The notes beneath the pieces are model-generated. The model saw only the letters and a list, made by a program, of their open reading frames with translations. It made no database searches and was not told where the DNA came from. This document shows, piece after piece, positions 10,016 to 37,633 of a stretch of DNA of 64,000 bases. Position 1 is the stretch's first letter. Each line of letters opens with the position of its first letter. The DNA comes from Microthyrium microscopicum (lineage: Eukaryota), in assembly GCA_010405405.1 (NCBI GenBank), contig MU004230.1:34627-98626 (forward strand). The letters are read 5' to 3'. The position numbers and the translations under genes were made by a program.

Positions 10016-10294
10016 ACGCACTAGCGTTAGGCTAATATACGCCCAAACTAGTAGCACCTGTATGTTCTAAAGGTTACTACCTCCTGTTAAAGCATGATTG
10101 CGTCGAGGACGTACCTGCATCTAGAGACTAGTCCAATTTCGTACTCGGCATGTCCAGAAATGGCTAGCGTCAGCCAGAATGCTATAAATAATTCCCTACT
10201 GTCAACTTCAGTCCACAAGTCTATTCAAAAATGTACCACTAAGTTGTTTCTTTAAGCACCATAACTTCTTCATACTACCTGCAGTCAATTTATC

Positions 10295-11821
10295 ATGGCA
10301 CTCCCCGCCCCAACTCTCATCCATCGCTTGCCTAATGAGCTTCTTTACTTATGCTTTCGATACTGTGCTGACTCAGACATGCTGGCAGAGGCAGAAAATT
10401 CTCGCAGCTACTCGGGGCTTCGCGCGTACTCTTCATCGATCAGATATCGCTCACTGTGGGCTATAAGCTTGACTTGCTCCCGATTCTCGCAATTGGTAAG
10501 GCCCTTGCTTTATGCCGACATTAATGTCGCAGCCGATGAGAATAGTTACGAGCAAAGACACCGAGCTGAGCGATTTTATCGCACCATCAAAGAGTTTCCA
10601 TTTTTGAGACAATTGTGTATCATCCTGACCGTCGATGTTGCTATGTTAATACGGCTTGAGCGAAAATGTGCCAGTGGCCATTTCTTTGATAGCCTCAAAG
10701 AGTTGACCTTGTATTGCGTCCAAAGCACTTCGGGCGGAGAAGGAGCGCTAGACTTGGACACCGCTCGCTTACAATCGCCATGGCTATCCTGTCATATAGC
10801 TATTAGCCGGATACCAACTTTACAGAAATTGAGCCTGGATGGTGGATTCGATGAGCTTCGACTACGGCTTGAACATTTGACTCCATTTCTTGAAGATCTC
10901 ACAAATTTGAAAGTACTGAGTTTATCTGGACTGGGATGCCCTGGGGCAAGAGAGAGGCCAGTTAGTACGACTACCTTTGAAGAAAGATCAATCAGCGATG
11001 CAGCAACGATACCAGATACTGTAAGCCCTCGCAATCTCTCATATTATCAACTTCATGCAACTTGTCGATGACATCTTTGCCCACAACTAACAAATTATCA
11101 GCGTCAATTGGGAACAGCTTCCTTCACTGAACTGCATTTGCAAAATCTGAACTATGTCAGCCCTTCTGCGTTGAAGAACTTCCTCTGCTGGCCAAGATCA
11201 TTAAAAGTATTGACCATTGGCTTGACAGGAGTGACAGGAATGGGAGGCTATCCTATCGATTACTCATCAATTACGCCAATGGGAGGCTATGCTATTGATT
11301 ACTTAGTAGAGTCTGGCTACATGGCCTATCCATGGACTCATACTCTACTTGCCAATGTGCTTCATCGCCAAAGAAGTACGTTGCGTGAGCTTCGCGTGGA
11401 GCAGCTGGCTACTCAGGATGGGCTCGATTCTTTCAGTCTTCATGATTTTATCAATCTCGAAACCTTTCAGTGCTGCATCCAGGGTCGCCCAAATCCCGAA
11501 GAAGCATCGCGAATCTGGGCTACACCAACCCTGAAAACTTTGGTTCTAGAATACACAGACCACGATAGCCAACATGGAAAATACTACTTTTTCCTACCAA
11601 ATGACATCGAATGGCTTGACGACTTTGCTAGATCTGTAGTGAAGAAGTCTAAGTATATGGACGCTGGACTTGAATGCATCGAAATATCACCAACAGAAGA
11701 ATCACACTGGAACCCATGGTCGGGCCTCGATGGACGGCAAACAGCGTTGATATTTGAAAACGCAAAACTTGCTGTGGAGAAACATGGTATTAAGTTCAAG
11801 TACCTCCAGTGTACTGTGTAG
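10295..11821 (+). CDS. F-box-like / leucine-rich-repeat protein (2 exons, ~481 aa)
   Basis: N-terminal LIHRLPNELLYLCFRY F-box-like motif and LxxLxL repeats. Intron 11021-11101 (gtaagc...actaac...cag) joins ORFs 10295 and 11108 in frame. Confidence 0.75.
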
Positions 11822-23050: not shown

Positions 23051-24731
23051 ATGACTCTACTAAAGCTGCTCTTGGAAGGTGCCACGCTTCTGCTGGTTTC
23101 CAGGCTCATATTCAATGCATTCACGTCTTATCGATCAAAGATACCGGCAGCTCATTGGAGCGCCAACTTTTCATCCGCCTGGATTCTTTGGATCAGATAT
23201 ATATTCAAAGAGGTGAGCACTATTGATCAAGCCCATTCAAAGCTTGGTCCGGTGATTCGCCTGGCTCCGCATGAAGTCAGTGTGAACTGTGTGAAAGGAG
23301 GTATCCTGACCGTCTACGCTGGTGGTTTTGATAAGCACCCTTGGTATGCTAATCTCTTTGACAACTTCGGGTAAGAAAGGCTGAGCATACTTCTCGATAA
23401 TAAGGTCACAATTTAATCAATACAGGATCCCAAATATGTTTTCCACGTCAGCCGGGAAGCCACATTCGGAGCGGAAAAGAATGCTTTCCAACATCTATTC
23501 AAAATCGTATATTCAGAACTCAGGAACAATGACGAGCATAACCAAGATCTTGTTATTTGACAGGCTACTTCCAAAACTGCAATCATTATCAAAAGCCTCG
23601 CAGCCATTCGACATCTATGCAGTGATCAGCGCGACAACAATGGACTTTGTCACTGCATATTTATTCGGCCTATCACCCTCTTCGAATTTTCTAAGTGATG
23701 ATGAAATACGAGACAAATTCCTGGTAAATTATACAAGTCGTCATTCTTACAACTACTTCCCTCAAGAATTACCTGGGTTGACCAATACGCTAAAAGCCAT
23801 CGGAGTACGACTTGTGCCAACTTGGGTGGATGCGGCGAATGAATCCATCGGATCTTGGACATTACGAATGTGTGACGATGCAGATGCCTTTGTGAACTCA
23901 GAAAAAGGCTTGAAACAGAAGGATGCAGCAGATCCCGACATCCCCGAAACTTTTCGTCAACTTAGGACGGCCATGACCAAGCGGGATGGAAATGACAATG
24001 CAGTCAAAGAATACCAACGTTTAGCAATTGGAAGTGAGATGTTGGACCACCTAGCTGCTGGTTTTGATACCTCAGGAATAACCTTGGCCTTTTATGTGCA
24101 TGAGTTGTCGAAGAGACCGGGCCTGCAACGCGCTCTACATAAGGAATTGCTGACGCTAGAGCAGCCCATACTGATAGGAAAAGGCAGGACGGATCATGGG
24201 CTGCCTTCTGCAAAAGTTCTCGATGCCTTGCCACTGCTTCAAGCAACCTTACAAGAAACACTACGTCTTCGCTCTGCAATACCGGGTCCGCAACCTAGGG
24301 TCACACCCACTAAAGGTTGCACTCTGGGCCCGGATCAAGAGTACTTCGTGCCAGGAGGAGTGAGAATAAGTGCTCAAGCACACAGTCTTCATCGAAATCC
24401 AGAAGTCTTTGATGATCCAGAGACTTGGAGGCCAGAGCGATGGTTGGAGAACAGCCCTGAAAAGCTCAAAGATATGAATCGTTGGTTCTGGGCCTTTGGA
24501 AGTGGTGGTAGAATGTGTGTAGGAAGTAACTTGGCTCTCTATCGTAAGTGCCTGTCCCAGCTTTATAGATTTGTTGACTGATTTGCTATATCAGAAATGA
24601 AATACATCATAGCTGCGTTGTACAGTAACTGGACCATTGAGATCGAGGACGACGAAGGGTTCAAACAGAGAGATCTATACACGGCTCCACCCGAGTCTGG
24701 CAAACTAATAGTGAAGCTCCATACGGTATGA
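23051..24731 (+). CDS. Cytochrome P450
   Basis: GPVIRLAPHEVS, AGFDTS (I-helix), ETLR, PERW, FGSGGRMCVG heme motif; introns ~23371-23426 and ~24544-24594. Confidence 0.95.
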
Positions 24732-29262: not shown

Positions 29263-31131
29263 TTATCTAGACTTGTCTCTCGAAAACTTCTTGCTTATCT
29301 CATTTTTCAAAGATGACTTCCATGAGAGAATCTTCTTGATCCCCAGACTACCCATGTCACCCGAGTACTCAAACAGGAGGCTGACATATACCATGGTCAC
29401 TCTAGCTCCTTTGGTGGAGTGAATATCCGCCAAATTCTGCATATCTACCGACAAATAAGACTGACGAATTCCATTCTTATTGAAAGTCCGATCTTGCAAT
29501 TCCGCTGAGAATTCACAGTGCTTTGGAGATTCGTTAAAGACCTCCCATACTTGCTTTGCACTTCTTGGTGTTGCGCTTTTACTGATTGGTGTGCATATTA
29601 GATGACTCCATGTCTTTTTTTCTTTCGAATCGTAGCCTACTACGATGTAGATTGCCTCCGAGAAGTTTTTGCTTTCGGTGCTTGGCTGCAGTTTGCAGTG
29701 AAGGACCGAATGCCAGTTGTACTTTTCAAGCTTCCACCATGGAACATCCGGAATATCTGCATTGTGTTGTCGACTGATGGATATTTTATTGTCTTGAGAC
29801 TTGTGTCCGACCTGTAGTTCTGGATAACAAGAAACTTCTTTGAAGAATCGCTCGTCAAGTCCAAGAAACTGGAAAGTTACCGTCGAGCCGTTCAAAGAAG
29901 CATGCTTCATTGGCCTCTTTCGTACGTAGACCGTCTGAGTGGTTCTACTCGCCTTGAGTCGTGAGAAATCTACCTCCCCGATCTTTGCACACACTCGAGC
30001 GCATTGCTCACTATTTGGGTATGTTCTTTGCAACATCACCCCAGCTACCGTGTCAGTTTCCGAGGACTCATTTCGACAATCCAGTATGGCCCAGAATGCC
30101 CACGTGTTTGGGCCATTCAAACAGGTAATCATTTGAGTGGTTAGGCGAATGCCTTTGTTGGTCATCGTCGGTGGTGAACTGACATCTAGCCTACTAAATC
30201 CGACAAAGTCTCTCGAGTTTCTAAAGTCTTGTGGAGACCTGGCAAGAAGTCCATGCATCTCGCTAGTTTTCATGTCCGAGCCACTGTCCCAGGCAAGAAG
30301 AGATTGATCGTCAGATGTCTTGAGTAGCTCTTCTTGCAGTCGGGTAAATGCGTTCTCGCCTCCCTCTCCATACAGAAGAGGAATGTGTACGTTGAAAAGG
30401 CCCATAAGACAGTATGCCATATCTTCTGGCCGAGTTGTGGTCCGATTCGATGCCCAGTACATCTTTTGAGCAATGCTGAAGTCATATATGGCCTCAAGAT
30501 CACCATCCAAGGCGGACTCTATGATACCTGTGACTTCTGATATCTCTGTTTTTCGTTCTTTCCGTGATTTGAACCGCTTCCAGTCACTTGTGTAAAACAC
30601 CAGCTCCGGAGGCGCAATGAGTTCCTGGAGGGTCCAGCCCCGAGTGAACCATCTACTCAGTCTGAAGCTGCCGTCACTTACAGTGATTGCAGTATCGGGA
30701 ACATCGCTCAGATATGCATAGCATACGGTGGCCTGAGAGTACCAGCGAAACATGGAATTGATGGCCTCCGAAAGTTCGGAACTGCTTGACTTGTCGATAC
30801 TACAGGTATCCACCCAGCAATAGCTGAGTCCATCTTTTAAAGCTTGTTCGCAGCAATATTGGACTTTTTGGAAGCCGAGTTTGTCTTTTCCACGGTCATT
30901 TCGAATGTCGTCGTATAAGAACTCATCCTCTCCCCCTGTGATATGTTAGTATGAGACGAACGTTTTCCTTATCATTTCATGTAGTGAAATATGTGTCAAC
31001 AAGACGACTGTCTGTAGGATATCAAAAAGCGAGTTGTGGTACTTACAAGTATGCGAGAGTATAGCATATTTTGGAGCGTTGTCCTCGTAAAACCACTCGA
31101 GTTGAATCGATTTGCTATTTATTAACCACAT
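29263..31131 (-). CDS. HET-domain (heterokaryon incompatibility, PF06985-like) protein with a long unrecognised C-terminal region
   Basis: YAILSHT|WGEDE, WVDTCSIDKSSSSELSEAINSMFRWY, SRWFTRGWTLQELIAP, EDMAYCLMGLF, PLLYGEG..AF.RLQEE; intron 30936-31046. Confidence 0.93.
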
Positions 31132-31477
31132 GAAATGATTTGAAGGTCTCTGACCGATGTCAAGGGTCTGATTGCATGAGGAGTCAGTATTTGCTGCCTA
31201 GCTAATAGCCGCTGTCTCCAAACGATTGAAAGGAGGCGCGGTCGTTCTTCAAAACGCCACACTTGTTGTTGTACATGCAGGACTTTGGAAACAGTCTTCA
31301 ACAAACTGAAGTACGTATTAGGGATATGTTGGAGTAACTCGATGCTGGACTCATTGTTTTGAGTCCAGATGATGTACATTCTAGGATTGGAGAAAATCCT
31401 CCCGAAATGTCCGAGGGTTTGACTTGCACTGCCACCACGAATCCTGTCATGATCCATGAGGCGCAACCAATTGACAA

Positions 31478-31620
31478 AAACTTCTACTCCTCAACCGCCA
31501 GATTCGCTACGAAGCTTGGAACATCTTCTGCCGTAAGGTCCGAGAGGGATTTGGTAGTACTTGCAGCAAGGCTTATACTTCGGTGTTCCTGCCATGAATG
31601 AGATTCTTGAGGTACTCTCC
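31478..31620 (+). pseudogene. Decayed sixth copy of the tandem paralog family
   Basis: 31478-31540 reads KLLLLNRQIRYEAWNIFCRKV, matching KDLLLLNRQICNEAW / KSLLLLNKAIHCEAWNLCCRK of the intact copies. MNEILEVL follows in another frame. No start or F-box part is present. Confidence 0.75.
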
Positions 31621-32043
31621 TTGTCGATAATCAAGTAGGTACTCAAGGATGCGTACCTGGTAGCTTCGGACTTGAGGTTGATGAACGCAAAATGTGAAAA
31701 CATAAATTTGACATTACCAGTCAATTGTCTCTCTGCTGCATTCAACGATAATTATTTCGAATCAATACACTGACTGGTAAGAGGGGATCCGCAAGTACTT
31801 CCAAGTTCAACATCAGAATGCTATGCAGGTCATTCTTGTGAGTCATCGTCCGACATGACAACATCAATAAATACCAACATCTCCCCCATTGCCTCCGAAT
31901 GTCCAAATAAATCTTGTCTTCAATAACGAATTCCATGGGACTATATCAGCTTCACAGGCTCTTTTTTTTACGTCCAGTCAATAAACACCTGCCTCAGACC
32001 AATCATGGATCAGACCAGCCAGTCCTCAATATCCAAATCAATC

Positions 32044-32661
32044 ATGGCGCCGACTATCGGATTCTTCAGGCTACCTCTGGAGCTTCGACTAGAAATCTAC
32101 AACACCTACCTCAATGATGCTGGTGTCACACAATCAGACTTTGAGTCGTCGTCTATCGAAAGAGACATCAGCCAGTTGTTTACCGAAATCAATCAACTTC
32201 TACGTCTCAATCACCAAATCTACCACGAAGCTCGAACCATAGCCTGCCGACTGATTTATGACAGCACTCTCAAGTGTACAACCAACGACTTTGCAACATT
32301 TAAGCGCTCTTTCCAGTCCCTGCCTACTGATCGTCAACACTGCGTACTCACGAAGCTTACCTTGCTGAACACCCCCAAGAAACCTAATCGCTTTCCTACC
32401 AATAAGATTCTCAGAATTCTGGCCAAAGAAGCGGGCTATCGAAATACCCAGATGATGCAGAATGGCTCGCAGCTGGTATACAAGGATGGCGTAAAGAAAC
32501 CCGTGTTTCTGCAACATATATTTCCACCAGGTCGCCAGAGCCCAATCAATTTATACTTCAAACTTCATGCATCTAACGCTGGATGCTGGGAGTACCTTGC
32601 CTTGGATGGACTGGTTGCGCATCTTGAAAGCTTTGAAGAGATCCTCAAGGTAGAGCATTGA
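32044..32661 (+). CDS. Tandem paralog 1, F-box/2EXR-like N-terminus, function unknown
   Basis: FFRLPLELRLEIYNTYL; NDFATFKRSF; LTLLNT; WEYL; possible upstream ATG at 32005. Confidence 0.8.
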   Translation: MAPTIGFFRLPLELRLEIYNTYLNDAGVTQSDFESSSIERDISQLFTEINQLLRLNHQIYHEARTIACRLIYDSTLKCTTNDFATFKRSFQSLPTDRQHCVLTKLTLLNTPKKPNRFPTNKILRILAKEAGYRNTQMMQNGSQLVYKDGVKKPVFLQHIFPPGRQSPINLYFKLHASNAGCWEYLALDGLVAHLESFEEILKVEH

Positions 32662-33053
32662 TTTTGAAAATTCGGAATGCAAGCTCCCAATATTATACTT
32701 TCAATTGTTTCTTTTCGTCCCTTCATGAAAGCTTCCTGGCCTTAGCATGTCGCTTTCCTTGAGAAGTAGTTCCTCTCTCACTGCCCACTGGACTTCTCAA
32801 CTAGTGCTATTGAAGTTTCTCATACATTGAGCTATTTTGAGTCATCACTGAACATCATCGCTGAAGATTCTTATCGCCAACATAAACTCATTGTTTACTT
32901 GCTCTCACATTGTCACTATCGTCCTATAAACCCTCAATCATTCCACCTTCGACTCACTTTCTCCAACTTCCTATGCTATCGACGACCACATCTCACTCGG
33001 ACCGAGCCAACAATCAGCGCAGGTGAAGACCTCCTTCAGCAGATCCTACAGCA

Positions 33054-33698
33054 ATGGCATCCTCTATCGGGTTCTTCGACCTACCAGCGGAACTTCGACT
33101 GGAAATCTACAAAGTCTATCTGGATGACTGCGGCTCTTACACTCCGGAAAACGATGAGGAGAAAGATGGCAAAGATTGCAAGCATATTCGCAAAGTGATC
33201 CCAGACTTCTTTGATGAAGCCAAAGACCTTCTACTTCTCAATCGTCAAATTTGCAACGAGGCATGGCACATCATCTCACGAATAGTCCATAACCAAGAAG
33301 CTCCAATCCTCTTCCATTGGGATACCGACGATTTTCACACATTCAAGCGCGCATTCGAGTCTGTTTCCGTCGAACAGCGCTCCTCTTTTGTCGAAGGCAA
33401 GCTTATGCTGGTCAACACTCCACTAACACCAGACCGCTTCCCAATCAAGGAATTGGTCAGCATTCTGGGGGAAGAAACCAGCGATCGCAGCATCTGCTTC
33501 ATCGAGGCATATGGACGCGAGAGGTGGGTGAGGGAATGGATGGTCGATGGCTTCCACTTCGAGGTAGATGAAGAGGACAAACGCCTTTTGTCTTTCAGCG
33601 TTCATTTTACCAGAGGTGAAGGTTGGGAGTACTTTGAATTTGAGGGAATGCCCAACTGGCTCGACTGTATCGACCAGATTCTTCGGATGGAGCATTGA
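33054..33698 (+). CDS. Tandem paralog 2
   Basis: FFDLPAELRLEIYKVYL; DDFHTFKRAF; LMLVNT; WEYF. Confidence 0.82.
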   Translation: MASSIGFFDLPAELRLEIYKVYLDDCGSYTPENDEEKDGKDCKHIRKVIPDFFDEAKDLLLLNRQICNEAWHIISRIVHNQEAPILFHWDTDDFHTFKRAFESVSVEQRSSFVEGKLMLVNTPLTPDRFPIKELVSILGEETSDRSICFIEAYGRERWVREWMVDGFHFEVDEEDKRLLSFSVHFTRGEGWEYFEFEGMPNWLDCIDQILRMEH

Positions 33699-34388
33699 CG
33701 GGTGCTCACTCACTTCCGGATTCTCCCTTGGAGGATGGATGAGTCGACAAATCAATGATATATACCTAGGTACTCATTGAGTCTAATATCGGCCATCTGC
33801 TACGTTCTATCATCAGGTGCCTAATGTCCCGGAAGGTGCGCCAAGTATTTAGCTCTACTTCAACGCGCTGGAAAACAAAGCGTGTCTTTGTCAAGAAGTG
33901 CCATAGGAGAGCTCTCTATAGCTGGGAGCAGGCTTTTTGTTTTGCTGACCTGGCGGATGGTCTCTCTCTGCGTATTTATCCATAAGCTGTGTATGCACAG
34001 TCGTCACCCAACTCAGCAAGAGGTGACAATGTCAACTTCGACCTACTTCATAGAGGGAAAGTAAAACCATGCTGAAGTTCAGCAGTAGCGACAACACATG
34101 TGTGAGTATTCGCTGCCTAGAGGCAAAACTCACAGGCTGCAGCCAAGGCTGATATTTTGATTTTAGGCCGCCTCCTAGAGTTCTCTCCATCAAGATCCAC
34201 TTTGGCACTTCTCACGAAGTATTACCCGCCCAAGAACGAACGCACGAGCGATAGCTTCAATCTGCCATGAATAGATCACTCTTACTTCAGCACTACTATA
34301 AACCATACCTCAGATATCTCAAACATTTTATCAAGCGCTTCAGTCTCCTCTCAGGCCGTGTGCCCAAACCAAAGCCAACACTTCGATT

Positions 34389-35000
34389 ATGGCCTCCCAT
34401 TTTCCCTTTATGAAGCTGCCCACGGAACTTCGATTAATCATATATGAATATTGCCTTTATGGCTGTGGTCACGACTTCACTCTGGGCCTTGAAAATTACT
34501 TCGATATGATCGCCTTCTTCGACGCGCGCAAATCGCTACTGCTCCTCAACAAAGCAATACACTGCGAGGCATGGAATTTATGCTGTCGCAAAACCACTCC
34601 CGAGATTCTTGAGAAAATTCACTTCTTCTGTGAGGCCGATGACTTCGATGCCTTCAAACGCGCGTTCCACAGCCTACCAAACGATGAACGACAATATGTG
34701 GATGTTGGACTGACCTGGTCAAACACCATCGAGAATGGCAAACCCTATCCCATTAAGGAAATCCTCAGAATGGAGATTCTTTCACAAAATGACGGTTATG
34801 ACAGCTTTGAAGAGATGCAACAAGACACAGATCTCAAGCCGGATCGCGAATTAGATACCATGTTGTTCTCTACGATGGTGCTTAATGCCACATACGAAGT
34901 GGAGTTAAAGTTCAGGCTTGAAGAGGACTGGGAGTATCTCTACTTGATGGGACCACTCGGCGCAATCATGAGTGGCTTGGACGAAATTCTTGAATTATAG
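34389..35000 (+). CDS. Tandem paralog 3
   Basis: FMKLPTELRLIIYEY; DDFDAFKRAF; LTWSNT; WEYL. Confidence 0.82.
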   Translation: MASHFPFMKLPTELRLIIYEYCLYGCGHDFTLGLENYFDMIAFFDARKSLLLLNKAIHCEAWNLCCRKTTPEILEKIHFFCEADDFDAFKRAFHSLPNDERQYVDVGLTWSNTIENGKPYPIKEILRMEILSQNDGYDSFEEMQQDTDLKPDRELDTMLFSTMVLNATYEVELKFRLEEDWEYLYLMGPLGAIMSGLDEILEL

Positions 35001-35226
35001 CACTGGATGGCTCCTGCCTTTTCTTCCTCCATGACTTCCCATCACAATCACCTAAGCAACGAGCACAACACCAATAACAACAAAATTCATCCCACTTTCT
35101 AAATCTTGAGCTCATCACACATCAGTCCATTCAACTACCAGTTCTTTGGATCTCTCTATTTTGCCACATCCAATACACTCATCGGCTCACAAGCTGATCC
35201 CCTGGCCCAAACGACTCACGTCAACT

Positions 35227-35910
35227 ATGTCCTCAATCTTTCGATTTATGGATCTCCCCCCGGAACTACGACTTATGATCTACGAAGAATACTTTCTTGC
35301 CTGCATAGGCAGCGACGTCAAGAATTTCTGGCCTGCTACTGACAACATTTTCGAGCTTGTTGGTCTTTTCGATTCTTTTAAAAAGCTCCTTCTTATTAGC
35401 AAAACGGTCAAGGAGGAAGCTTGGGAACTCTACCGGTCGCCAGTGAAAGATTTGAATACAGAAATCATACAATGGGATCGTTACTTTGACTGTGAGACCG
35501 ACGACTTCGGAACTTTCAAGCATGCCATGCAGAGCCTATGTGACGATGTACAATGCAGGTTGGTTTGTGTTGAGCTTACACTGTCGAACACTCCCATGAA
35601 ACCCAACGCCTACCCGATCAACAAATTGCTCGAAATCTTTGCTCAAGCACTGGGCTATGACAGTATTGAATCGATGGAAGCAAACGCAAAGCTAGTTCAG
35701 AAGGCGGAATTGCACAAAAGAGCTTTGTTTCGCCACAGGATCGACAATGACTGGGACTCAGGTGTCAAGCTGTCCTTTACGCGCTACCACACGCCTGCTG
35801 GATATTGGGAGTACTTCCACTTAAAGGGGGCCGAAATCGGTCAACTCCACCTCCATGGCACTTGGGTTCTGGACGAGATGCTTAAAGTGGAGCCCTCCAC
35901 GTCGATTTAG
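35227..35910 (+). CDS. Tandem paralog 4
   Basis: ATG 35227; FMDLPPELRLMIYEEY; DDFGTFKHAM; LTLSNT; WEYF. Confidence 0.82.
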   Translation: MSSIFRFMDLPPELRLMIYEEYFLACIGSDVKNFWPATDNIFELVGLFDSFKKLLLISKTVKEEAWELYRSPVKDLNTEIIQWDRYFDCETDDFGTFKHAMQSLCDDVQCRLVCVELTLSNTPMKPNAYPINKLLEIFAQALGYDSIESMEANAKLVQKAELHKRALFRHRIDNDWDSGVKLSFTRYHTPAGYWEYFHLKGAEIGQLHLHGTWVLDEMLKVEPSTSI

Positions 35911-36426
35911 TCGTGAACCAACATAGAAATGTTTATCTGAATGTCTTCTCCCACGAAGGCTCGAAAAGAGCAAGAAATGTCATGGAACTTATAAGGGACT
36001 TACTGCGCCAGACGATCTGATCAACCTCCAGGTCTGAGGTGCATTGTGGTTACAACTGGTTCTGACGATGAATTTGTCACTTTCGCGTTGGCAATCGGGT
36101 CTTCGGGCCAGGACTAAATTGACAGAGAAGAGGGCCCATTCCTTGAACAGTCAACACCACATGCTTTTGATACCCATCGTGCCTTCCTTAACAGCTGCTC
36201 CAGATGTATGTCCAGCAGCGTCATCAAAGATGTTCACAGGACTCCAGGCAACCACTTCTTCCACCATCATGTATGTAGCAGTACCTTGATCATTCTGTAC
36301 TCTACAAAAAATCCAACCTCTATTCTCGACTCCTTGCTTGTGCTTCTGCTTTTTCCGTATTAAAGATCCACTCACTTCCAGTAAAACTGTCCTGCCTACT
36401 CATCCCAAAGACGGGTCACCACAGAC

Positions 36427-37059
36427 ATGGAATTGAAAATGGACTTCTTCCAATTCCCTGGCGAGATTCGCAACAGAATCTACACCTTCTACATCAATGA
36501 CTGCGGTACCAGTCCGCATCAGGCAGAGGAGCAAAAGATATACACAAGAAGCAATTGTCATGATGTTGCCACCTTCTTCGATGATGCTAAGAAACTCTTC
36601 CTGCTCAACAAGCAAATCTACATCGAATCTCGAGGCATCTTCTGTCGATTGGTTCATGACGAGCGGACCGGCCTTTCATATGACATTCACGACTGGGCCA
36701 CCTTCAAGCGTGCCTACAAAGCCCTTCCTTCTCATCTATTTGGCGAGACCCAGGGAACGCTCACGCTGTTGAACACCGTCGAGACTGGCAACACTCAGCC
36801 GATCAAGCAGCTTATCGAATTTTTTGCCAAGGAAGGTGGTTGGAAATCTATTGCCGCCATGCAGAAGAGCTGCCCGACCACATACGACAAGGACCTGAAC
36901 AAAATGGTCCACGCCAGACAGTGGACGAGCAATGAAGACATGGACATGCAATTCTTCTTCAAGGTCTACAAACGCAAGGATGATATCTGGGAGTACTTTC
37001 ATATGGAAGGAATTGGATGGACCGACGAGATCGATGATCTGCTTCAGCTGGACTTCTGA
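36427..37059 (+). CDS. Tandem paralog 5
   Basis: FFQFPGEIRNRIYTFY; HDWATFKRAY; LTLLNT; WEYF. Confidence 0.82.
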   Translation: MELKMDFFQFPGEIRNRIYTFYINDCGTSPHQAEEQKIYTRSNCHDVATFFDDAKKLFLLNKQIYIESRGIFCRLVHDERTGLSYDIHDWATFKRAYKALPSHLFGETQGTLTLLNTVETGNTQPIKQLIEFFAKEGGWKSIAAMQKSCPTTYDKDLNKMVHARQWTSNEDMDMQFFFKVYKRKDDIWEYFHMEGIGWTDEIDDLLQLDF

Positions 37060-37361
37060 TCGATTGATCCTCACATCCTTAAGTAGTTTCTTGAGATCAA
37101 CCATCGAGGACGGTGGCTGAGATCGAGGGCGGCGACTCAAATGGGAACACTTCTTGAGCCGAGCACAGCAGCAAGTCTTGTGACAATTATACCAGCAGGT
37201 CTGCGAAGTGAATAGCATACTTTAGCGCCATAAAAGACGATGTATGTCATCAAAGTCGATGGCATGTTTTCACAATGGAGAAACATTTCCCCAAACACCA
37301 ATCTGATTCCAAAACGTGATATAGTCCAAGAGTTACGTAGATCTACACAGAATTTTCGGGT

Positions 37362-37585
37362 ACAAAATAAGTGAGCCGTTTCGACGACTATGCTCATCGA
37401 TGACGATGGCTGCCATAGCAATTCTTAAAGAGTAAACACCCAAGTACTTCAACTCCTGTCAGCGTCATAAACCTTATATCAACTTGTTAAATACAGTGGT
37501 TGTTAAATCAGTTACTCTTTAAGAAGTGCTATAGCAGCCATCGTCATCGATGAGCATAGTCGTCGAAACGGCTCACTTATTTTGT
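37362..37585. repeat. Long inverted repeat (74-bp arms, 76-bp spacer); MITE-like or hairpin RNA precursor
   Basis: 37362-37435 is the reverse complement of 37512-37585 with 2 mismatches. Confidence 0.9.
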
Positions 37586-37633
37586 GCCTGGAGAGACAGA
37601 GTACCTAGGTATATAAGCATCTTAATAATTGCC

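Follow-up and report, generated by a model that had tools for sequence, protein, structure and literature searches.

A probable tandem array of old F-box-type genes beside a HET-domain gene in Microthyrium microscopicum

What do five similar genes that follow one another on one strand of Microthyrium microscopicum DNA encode, and how have they persisted close to a region in which RIP has acted? The genes lie in a window of 64,000 nucleotides, the whole stretch of DNA analysed here, and a first-pass annotation had described them as five co-oriented, intronless paralogs of an unrecognised family that had escaped RIP. It appears quite likely to us that they form an old tandem array of F-box substrate receptors of the SCF ubiquitin ligase, each carrying a substrate-recruiting C-terminal domain.

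All five open reading frames are on the + strand. Copy 1 (32044..32661) encodes 205 amino acids, which an upstream in-frame ATG at 32005 would extend to 218, and is followed by copy 2 (33054..33698; 214 amino acids), copy 3 (34389..35000; 203), copy 4 (35227..35910; 227), whose nearest copy is copy 3 (41% identity), and copy 5 (36427..37059; 210). Their paralogy is confirmed: all ten pairs are 29–41% identical, which places them 13.7–24 SD over 200 shuffles, and an alignment of all five copies reproduces the five motif blocks in the order first proposed. The coding sequences are also intronless as described, since a spliced-RNA contig crosses all five with no joint inside any of them. Two short DNA matches had been reported as well. 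The sequence gagcattga does end copies 1 and 2 (32653 and 33690) and is only the place where the reading frames of these two paralogs end (E-H-stop). The sequence ctataaacc is indeed present at 32924 and 34296, but it does not stand as a shared signal: when sets of five 200-nt stretches were drawn at random, 1569 of 2000 contained a common 9-mer, so that an upstream match alone is at chance level and a common promoter element was rejected. This 9-mer contains TATAAA, 129 and 92 nt ahead of the ATGs of copies 2 and 3.

The balanced composition and open frames of the copies were borne out, the RIP composite index of the five coding sequences being −0.55 to −1.32 and resembling the genic background. 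In window positions 1–10 kb the index is +1.5 to +1.75, which shows that RIP has acted nearby. RIP has been reported to need 80% identity over 400 bp (PMC3828140), and none of the ten pairs reaches at least 80% over that length; the best 400-column DNA identity is 44–52%, the best 100-column identity is 53–63% and the longest exact match between copies is 8–14 nt. Divergence has taken the copies far beyond what RIP can still recognise. The supposed escape is therefore no puzzle: with an identity well below about 80%, the survival of the copies is unsurprising and requires no special mechanism, and the array does not inform how RIP is evaded. Diverged tandem paralogs are reported to be common in RIP-active fungi, with 147 tandem pairs counted (PMC3828140).

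The copies are under purifying selection. Estimates of ω, which are rough because third codon positions approach saturation (identity 0.31–0.44 among the copies), are 0.24–0.30, and ω = 1 is rejected (lnL −3263.2 versus −3309.3 and −3192.8 versus −3237.7 for fitted ω versus ω = 1; 2ΔlnL about 90). By the same rough measure, ω is 0.19–0.20 in the first 62 gap-free codons and 0.32 in the last 124. These values, together with RNA cover, support the earlier proposal of old duplications maintained by selection; the annotation had named unexpressed copies with dN/dS near 1 as an outcome that would speak against it, and what was found is the ω range given above and an RNA contig covering the array. 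That the array is decaying junk, or a set of unexpressed open frames, is largely refuted by the rejection of ω = 1 and is extremely improbable: although one related copy has decayed and the expression evidence is limited to contigs from a single run in which DNA is perhaps present, five frames are intact at about 50% DNA identity and a + strand spliced joint lies within the array.

The region is transcribed. The evidence consists of one run (X1, labelled 'RNA?'), in contigs only, with DNA admixture possible and possibly from the biological material that also supplied the genome. One assembled contig of 5.5 kb (31656..37217) covers all five open reading frames, which is not proof of a single transcript, and has spliced out a 65-nt GT-AG intron in the spacer of copies 2 and 3 (34102..34166, + strand). 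A database model (P0003) that gives copy 3 an N-terminal extension by splicing was rejected: the RNA uses the same donor with an earlier acceptor, and the spliced frame from the ATG at 34069 ends at a stop after 14 codons. A second acceptor for the 34102 donor may give the extended copy 3. A polycistronic reading was not adopted because the left end of the five-gene contig falls on an intron of the HET transcript described below, which runs on the opposite strand, because another contig of the run fuses the HET gene with its neighbour, because cover is found in all 30 of 30 bins, and because short-read assembly is reported to fuse overlapping transcripts (bioRxiv 10.1101/2023.04.26.537486).

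The claim that the whole family is unrecognised is not supported at its N-terminus. Motif blocks 1 and 2 read as an F-box-type motif that is split by a variable loop and predicted to dock on Skp1. An F-box-like motif is visible in the alignment of all five copies; in copy 2 it spans residues 4–67 (33063..33254, + strand) and consists of an FF.LP.ELR.EIY helix, the variable loop and F...K.LLLLNRQI. Residues P11, E13 and R15 do not vary across the 18 family rows, P11 being the LPxE proline, and the F-box proline has been reported elsewhere to be required for Cul1 binding (PMC3237615). In the Pfam scan no copy exceeded any cut-off and copy 5 had no match at E ≤ 1. 2EXR (PF20150; gathering cut-off 24.8 bits) matched the N-terminus of four copies at 16.1–20 bits (E 0.0015–0.025, the former in copy 1), DUF7730 (PF24864; 27 bits) matched three at 12–15.8 bits over about 20 N-terminal residues, and F-box-like_2 (PF13013) matched one below its cut-off (E 0.031), while PF00646 and PF12937 matched none of the five and NCBIfam gave two weak single-member matches. 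The ESM Atlas feature neighbours, at 0.97–0.98, are Ascomycota clusters, some of them named F-box, 2EXR or DUF7730.

The array proteins share with fungal 2EXR, DUF7730 and F-box-like_2 (PF13013) proteins the N-terminal motif F..LP.E[LI]R..IY ... L..[LV]N[RK]QI..E[AS]. Beyond the motif, no profile homology was seen with the corresponding region of 22 such proteins (hhalign, probability 0.3%). The copies are not assigned to DUF7730, being under its cut-off with no homology beyond the N-terminal motif. DUF7730 rows in the Atlas structure search had a TM of 0.41–0.42, obtained from a poor model. The M. microscopicum genome holds 23 PF20150 matches, including a group of four inside 7 kb of C6. The AF2 model of copy 2 (pLDDT 79.9, pTM 0.72) gave no PDB match at E ≤ 0.001 with Foldseek as a whole, and a BFVD structure search gave none for the copy model. 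The best of 48,161 chains in VIA was FBXO42, residues 45–97 of which, which we take to be its F-box, lie on model residues 5–84; this match is weak (Z 5.0, rmsd 1.9, 52 aligned), below the trust level of the tool, and unrelated helical chains tie with it within 1 Z.

Docking on Skp1 was predicted for copy 2 with the Skp1 of its own genome (P0104). The complex scored 0.75 against 0.00 for the best of three controls, and the runs share at least 64% of contacts. It passes the docking mark, as do 51 of the 78 solved pairs in the benchmark and 2 of the 108 mismatched ones; for eukaryotes the corresponding counts are 71 of 105 solved and 2 of 126 unrelated pairs. Confident contacts are confined to copy 2 residues 4–25 and 53–67, mostly with Skp1 residues 104–164, so that the predicted interface on the Skp1 side is mainly its C-terminal helices; the contact positions are 47% identical among the copies versus 31% elsewhere. 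The docking covered copy 2 and Skp1 only, with alignments unused and a Skp1 pLDDT of 49–52 that leaves its fold uncertain; the pass shows likeness, not binding by copy 2, and may reflect memory of solved Skp1–F-box complexes. It nevertheless weighs, with an interface restricted to the motif and FBXO42 as the top structural match, against the view that the N-terminus is merely F-box-like, a module of the 2EXR/DUF7730 type that folds on its own C-terminal domain and serves a Skp1-independent function. That view, consistent with profile matches that are all sub-threshold and with the publications listed, among which no link of 2EXR or DUF7730 domains to Skp1 was found, seems rather unlikely.

SCF receptors of the FBXO class, defined by an 'other' C-terminal domain, are the nearest known relatives in kind, for example human FBXO42 (PDB 9O04 chain G) and the 74 Aspergillus nidulans Fbx proteins reported in PMC9744329. 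The array copies share with them an N-terminal LP.E with an invariant proline and a separate C-terminal domain; a helical fold and an interface with the C-terminal helices of Skp1 are predicted for the copies. Unlike the class, the array proteins have an F-box split by 20–30 variable residues that falls below all Pfam cut-offs, are short at only about 210 amino acids and carry a C-terminal domain matching neither WD40, LRR or kelch domains nor any solved fold. Of the A. nidulans proteins, only 46 of 74 were reported with SkpA or CulA, which tells against the preferred reading, and 13 of these 46 with SkpA only (PMC9744329). The latter, the unusual loop inside the F-box and a docking test limited to Skp1 would suit Skp1-binding proteins that are no part of a ligase. 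Such proteins would work elsewhere than in SCF or would titrate Skp1 as decoys, and their C-terminal domain would be for localisation or for a partner other than a substrate. We regard this as unlikely: the Cul1-contact proline is invariant, and five differently diverged C-terminal domains under an ω of 0.32 exceed the needs of a decoy.

The C-terminal α/β domain of copy 2 (residues 72–214; 33267..33695, + strand), of about 140 amino acids, is predicted to be folded (pLDDT 75.2). For this part of the protein the label 'unrecognised' is supported as far as tested, in that no Pfam family or solved fold matches: Foldseek with the domain model gave nothing in the PDB at E ≤ 0.001, and in VIA none of 48,161 chains reached Z ≥ 5 with the domain alone (best chains RnlA NRD, Z 4.2, rmsd 4.0, and YER067W, Z 4.1), a result that does not establish the fold as new. 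Searching PDB sequences with the profile of the 18 family rows gave one match, a transcriptional regulator (E 0.004), judged to be chance, and an Atlas search with residues 75–214 reached at best 0.90, to unnamed Ascomycota clusters. The domain also occurs in at least four other genes of the genome and in about nine environmental proteins; a repeat protein (P0015) was excluded as a false match, and metagenome scans for the loci of the environmental homologs P0034 and P0060 found none. No description of the family was found among the listed titles and abstract openings of the open literature. The domain holds no invariant residue in the 18 family rows, and for this reason it suits a binding surface more than an active site and an enzyme reading was rejected. 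It probably picks the protein for destruction.

Under the preferred reading as SCF receptors, the array would have arisen by local duplication and then been pruned by birth-and-death. The N-terminal region of about 70 residues would bind Skp1, the Skp1-bound copies would enter the Skp1–Cul1 ligase, and the C-terminal domain would recruit a substrate for ubiquitination, different or partly different for each copy as they diverged. Traces of loss are present. A decayed sixth copy of 78 nt, missed by the first-pass annotation, lies upstream of the array (31469..31546, + strand) and retains the second F-box block only (protein HMM E 1.3e-6, DNA HMM E 6.4e-13); another remnant lies at C9:878537. 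F-box genes of mushrooms are reported to have expanded mainly by tandem duplication (bioRxiv 10.1101/349894), and in nematode F-box families the substrate domain is reported to be under positive selection (bioRxiv 10.1101/2024.12.17.628972). As described there, Agaricomycetes F-box and Caenorhabditis F-box/FTH genes resemble the array in local tandem duplication, birth-and-death and a conserved F-box followed by a C-terminal domain that changes faster. Unlike in both expansions, the array copies are old, with third positions near saturation, are few and lie in a RIP-bearing ascomycete.

The divergent neighbour is a HET-domain gene (29263..31131, − strand; PF06985 E 5.3e-6, over cut-off; intron 30935–31045). 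It stands head-to-head with the array, and its 5′ UTR spans the decayed sixth copy, which lies antisense beneath it. This arrangement, the two remnants, the position of the array 67–72 kb from the contig end beside AT-rich RIP blocks and the positive selection reported for nematodes would fit a special case of the preferred reading, a non-self or defence module in which diversifying SCF receptors for foreign or self/non-self proteins are coupled to the HET gene, for example by degrading or guarding its product. We hold this to be quite improbable, given that ω is below 1 overall and that, by eye, no HET-like gene is among the open reading frames listed around the C8 and C3 paralogs, to a distance of about 1.5 kb. 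A subtelomeric location is not established, as no array of a common fungal telomere repeat is present in C1:1–35000. A still bolder version, in which a new recognition fold equips a co-expressed, possibly read-through or polycistronic SCF repertoire against non-self or incompatibility proteins and forms with the HET gene a ubiquitin-based arm of fungal immunity, is very improbable.

The array suggests that fungi possess F-box proteins with a split motif that score below standard Pfam thresholds, and counts of F-box proteins in ascomycetes may thus be too low. The C-terminal domain is small and tractable, has no known fold and could represent a degron reader of a new class. Were the array truly linked in function to the HET gene, this would join targeted proteolysis to fungal non-self recognition.

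Five co-oriented open reading frames on the + strand (copies 1–5: 32044–32661, 33054–33698, 34389–35000, 35227–35910 and 36427–37059) were located where the first-pass annotation had placed them and are clear paralogs: all 10 pairs are 29–41% identical, 13.7–24 SD above shuffles, and the motif blocks described for them run in the same order in every copy. The copies are separated by spacers of 392, 690, 226 and 516 nt, and a 78-nt remnant at 31469–31546 is the survivor of a sixth. Two short shared strings offered as further evidence are there, yet count for little: gagcattga just closes the reading frames of two paralogs, and 9-mer sharing like that upstream of the copies was seen in 1569 of 2000 random draws, each of five 200-nt segments. 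Together with full-length paralogs at C8:2253416 and C3:417331 on other contigs of the genome, the array copies form a supported tree group (97/94; 99/98 in a second tree); the five alone group more weakly (87/89; 55/85 in the second tree), a pattern consistent with local duplication.

The proposal that the whole family is unrecognized is not supported: the blocks LP.E[LI]R..IY and F....K.L.LLN..I..E[AS] correspond to the first and second half of an F-box-type motif, parted by a variable loop. The array proteins miss the cut-offs of both the 2EXR and DUF7730 families, with sub-threshold Pfam matches to 2EXR in four of five copies, DUF7730 in three and F-box-like_2 in one, and copy 5 has no Pfam match even below threshold. 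Across the 18 rows of the family alignment at E ≤ 0.1, the corresponding counts are 8, 11 and 4. The proline of LP.E is invariant (18/18 rows); in those F-box proteins where this has been examined, binding to Cul1 is reported to depend on it (PMC3237615).

Modelled with AF2 (pLDDT 79.9, pTM 0.72), copy 2 has a helical N-terminal part and a mixed alpha/beta C-terminal part. Of 48,161 chains compared with this model, FBXO42 residues 45–97 came first (Z 5.0, rmsd 1.9, 52 aligned), a weak match with unrelated helical chains within 1 Z. Docking is the stronger test. With the organism's own Skp1, the single PF01466 match in the genome, copy 2 scored 0.75, and the highest-scoring of three controls 0.00; the docking mark is reached by 51 of 78 solved pairs and 2 of 108 mismatched pairs. 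Separate runs agree in at least 64% of contacts, with a partner pLDDT of 49–52. The confident predicted contacts all lie in copy 2 residues 4–25 and 53–67 and are mostly to Skp1 104–164, the known F-box-binding surface. As Skp1–F-box complexes have already been solved, the docking result indicates predicted likeness rather than binding.

For the C-terminal domain (residues 72–214 of copy 2) these searches support the proposal that it is unrecognized: no credible match was obtained in Pfam, NCBIfam, PDB sequences or Foldseek, the best Z in a VIA search was 4.2, and no profile similarity was seen to what follows the motif in 22 2EXR/DUF7730-type proteins. Folded alone, the domain reaches a pLDDT of 75.2, with its middle poorly modelled. 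Not one of its residues is conserved in all family members, a pattern that speaks against an enzyme; from its position and variability we infer, most simply, a substrate-binding module.

HMMER searches over 1.84 billion representatives gave 58 matches at E ≤ 0.001, comprising the five copies, the C8 and C3 paralogs, nine environmental proteins and 42 others mostly limited to the N-terminal 70–100 profile positions. The nine (163–320 aa, E 3e-12 to 1e-4) align over most of the profile and come from metagenome or read assemblies, with uninformative names. C-terminal profiles of the seven paralogs and ten environmental rows, with the first 71 residues removed, matched in hhalign (98.7%, E 3.6e-16, 128 columns), a comparison that is partly circular because the environmental rows were chosen with the full profile. 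Two further members in the genome, C1:2282481 and C7:703173, group with environmental sequences, and the C8 paralog has a more diverged family member as its neighbour. Broken pieces of the family occur at C9:878537; this member (C9:878400–880500; L015:4400–6460) contains internally repeated segments and N gaps, and may reflect either a fault in the assembly or a copy that broke up recently. P0008, P0010, P0016, P0019 and P0064 belong to another family, widespread in fungi, whose members are about 350–500 aa long and each carry two F-box-like motifs (2EXR/DUF7730 matches). F-box-like genes of the 2EXR type, some of them broken, are clustered at C6:1946330–1953076 (L018; four PF20150 matches within 7 kb) and C14:711213–719840 (L021 and L022), and their C-terminal region differs from that of the array family.

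Database labels assign copy 3 (P0003) and the genome's Skp1 (P0104) to Microthyrium microscopicum, a Dothideomycete. The array lies 67–72 kb into a contig of 4.5 Mb, at whose start no telomere array was seen. Between the contig start and the array are AT-rich blocks strongly marked by RIP (window 1–10 kb, GC 0.18–0.26, composite index +1.5 to +1.75); taken together with C1:1–15000, these blocks have a GC of about 0.2 and a composite index of +1.3 to +1.75. A weak F-box-like gene with an LRR-looking body (10265–11821, + strand; PF13013 E 0.0025, PF12937 E 0.011) sits directly at the edge of an AT-rich block, and a P450 gene occupies 23436–24581. The left neighbour of the array is a divergently transcribed HET-domain gene (29263–31131, − strand), whose long 5′ UTR, reaching beyond 31656 with an intron at 31588–31655, runs antisense to the remnant of the sixth copy; the RNA contig of the HET-domain gene continues into the next minus-strand gene. 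To the right lie a 260-nt MITE-like inverted-repeat element (37344–37603) and an alpha/beta hydrolase gene (37634 to at least 38854, − strand; Peptidase_S15/FrsA-like matches). The element has 92-nt arms, 89% complementary, around a 76-nt spacer, and 89 matches on at least 16 contigs at ∼70–79% identity, counting both orientations and partial matches; at 41% GC and a composite index of +0.13 it is not strongly RIP-degraded. Relatives of it occur among the RNA contigs.

RIP has acted in this genome, which holds six matches to PF00145 (cytosine methylases as a class, to which RID belongs). The five coding sequences are free of RIP bias by RIP indices. Nor are they substrates for RIP: over 400 aligned columns they reach at best 44–52% identity, with a longest exact match of 14 nt, versus the more than 400 bp at 80% identity that RIP is reported to need (PMC3828140). 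The same source, on a fungus in which RIP is active, counts 147 tandem pairs and suggests that such copies diverged rapidly once duplicated. Weak RIP at that time, asexual phases or RIP-driven divergence since overwritten may each have carried the copies, now saturated in sequence, through their youth.

Over 186 gap-free codons omega is 0.28–0.30 (GY+F3X4) or 0.24–0.26 (GY+F); fixing omega at 1 costs 46 and 45 lnL units. It is about 0.19 in the F-box and about 0.32 in the rest, a gap of untested significance with third positions near saturation. The RNA run X1 is spliced: of its 14 joints, 12 show the canonical ends of introns and the other two lie in the inverted-repeat element. One 5.5-kb contig spans 31656–37217 with zero mismatches and a single joint, a + strand GT–AG intron in the spacer ahead of copy 3, and is continuous across all five coding sequences, which are indeed intronless. 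The array region is transcribed, as judged from assembled contigs to which DNA may contribute. A short upstream ORF precedes copy 3 (34069–34178; 14 codons once intron 34102–34166 is spliced). The database model of copy 3 (P0003) uses the same donor and a later acceptor, extending the copy, a splice absent from the RNA contig. A polycistronic transcript was not adopted because contigs of X1 likewise run across the HET transcript on the opposite strand and across further neighbours, TATAAA stands at plausible distances before copies 2 and 3, and fusion of overlapping transcripts by short-read assembly is documented in Zymoseptoria (bioRxiv 2023.04.26.537486).

Tandem F-box arrays are already reported from fungi (bioRxiv 349894). 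In Aspergillus nidulans, 46 of 74 F-box proteins are reported as recovered with SkpA or CulA (PMC9744329), so that the motif alone is no guarantee of ligase function. No prior account of a split F-box paired with this C-terminal domain was found in literature listings and abstract starts; a relative that has been tested may be listed in the F-box tables for A. nidulans. The motif, the invariant proline and the docking support the prediction that the array proteins are FBXO-class SCF receptors, and what is new here is that an F-box, split and scoring below threshold, is joined to an undescribed domain.
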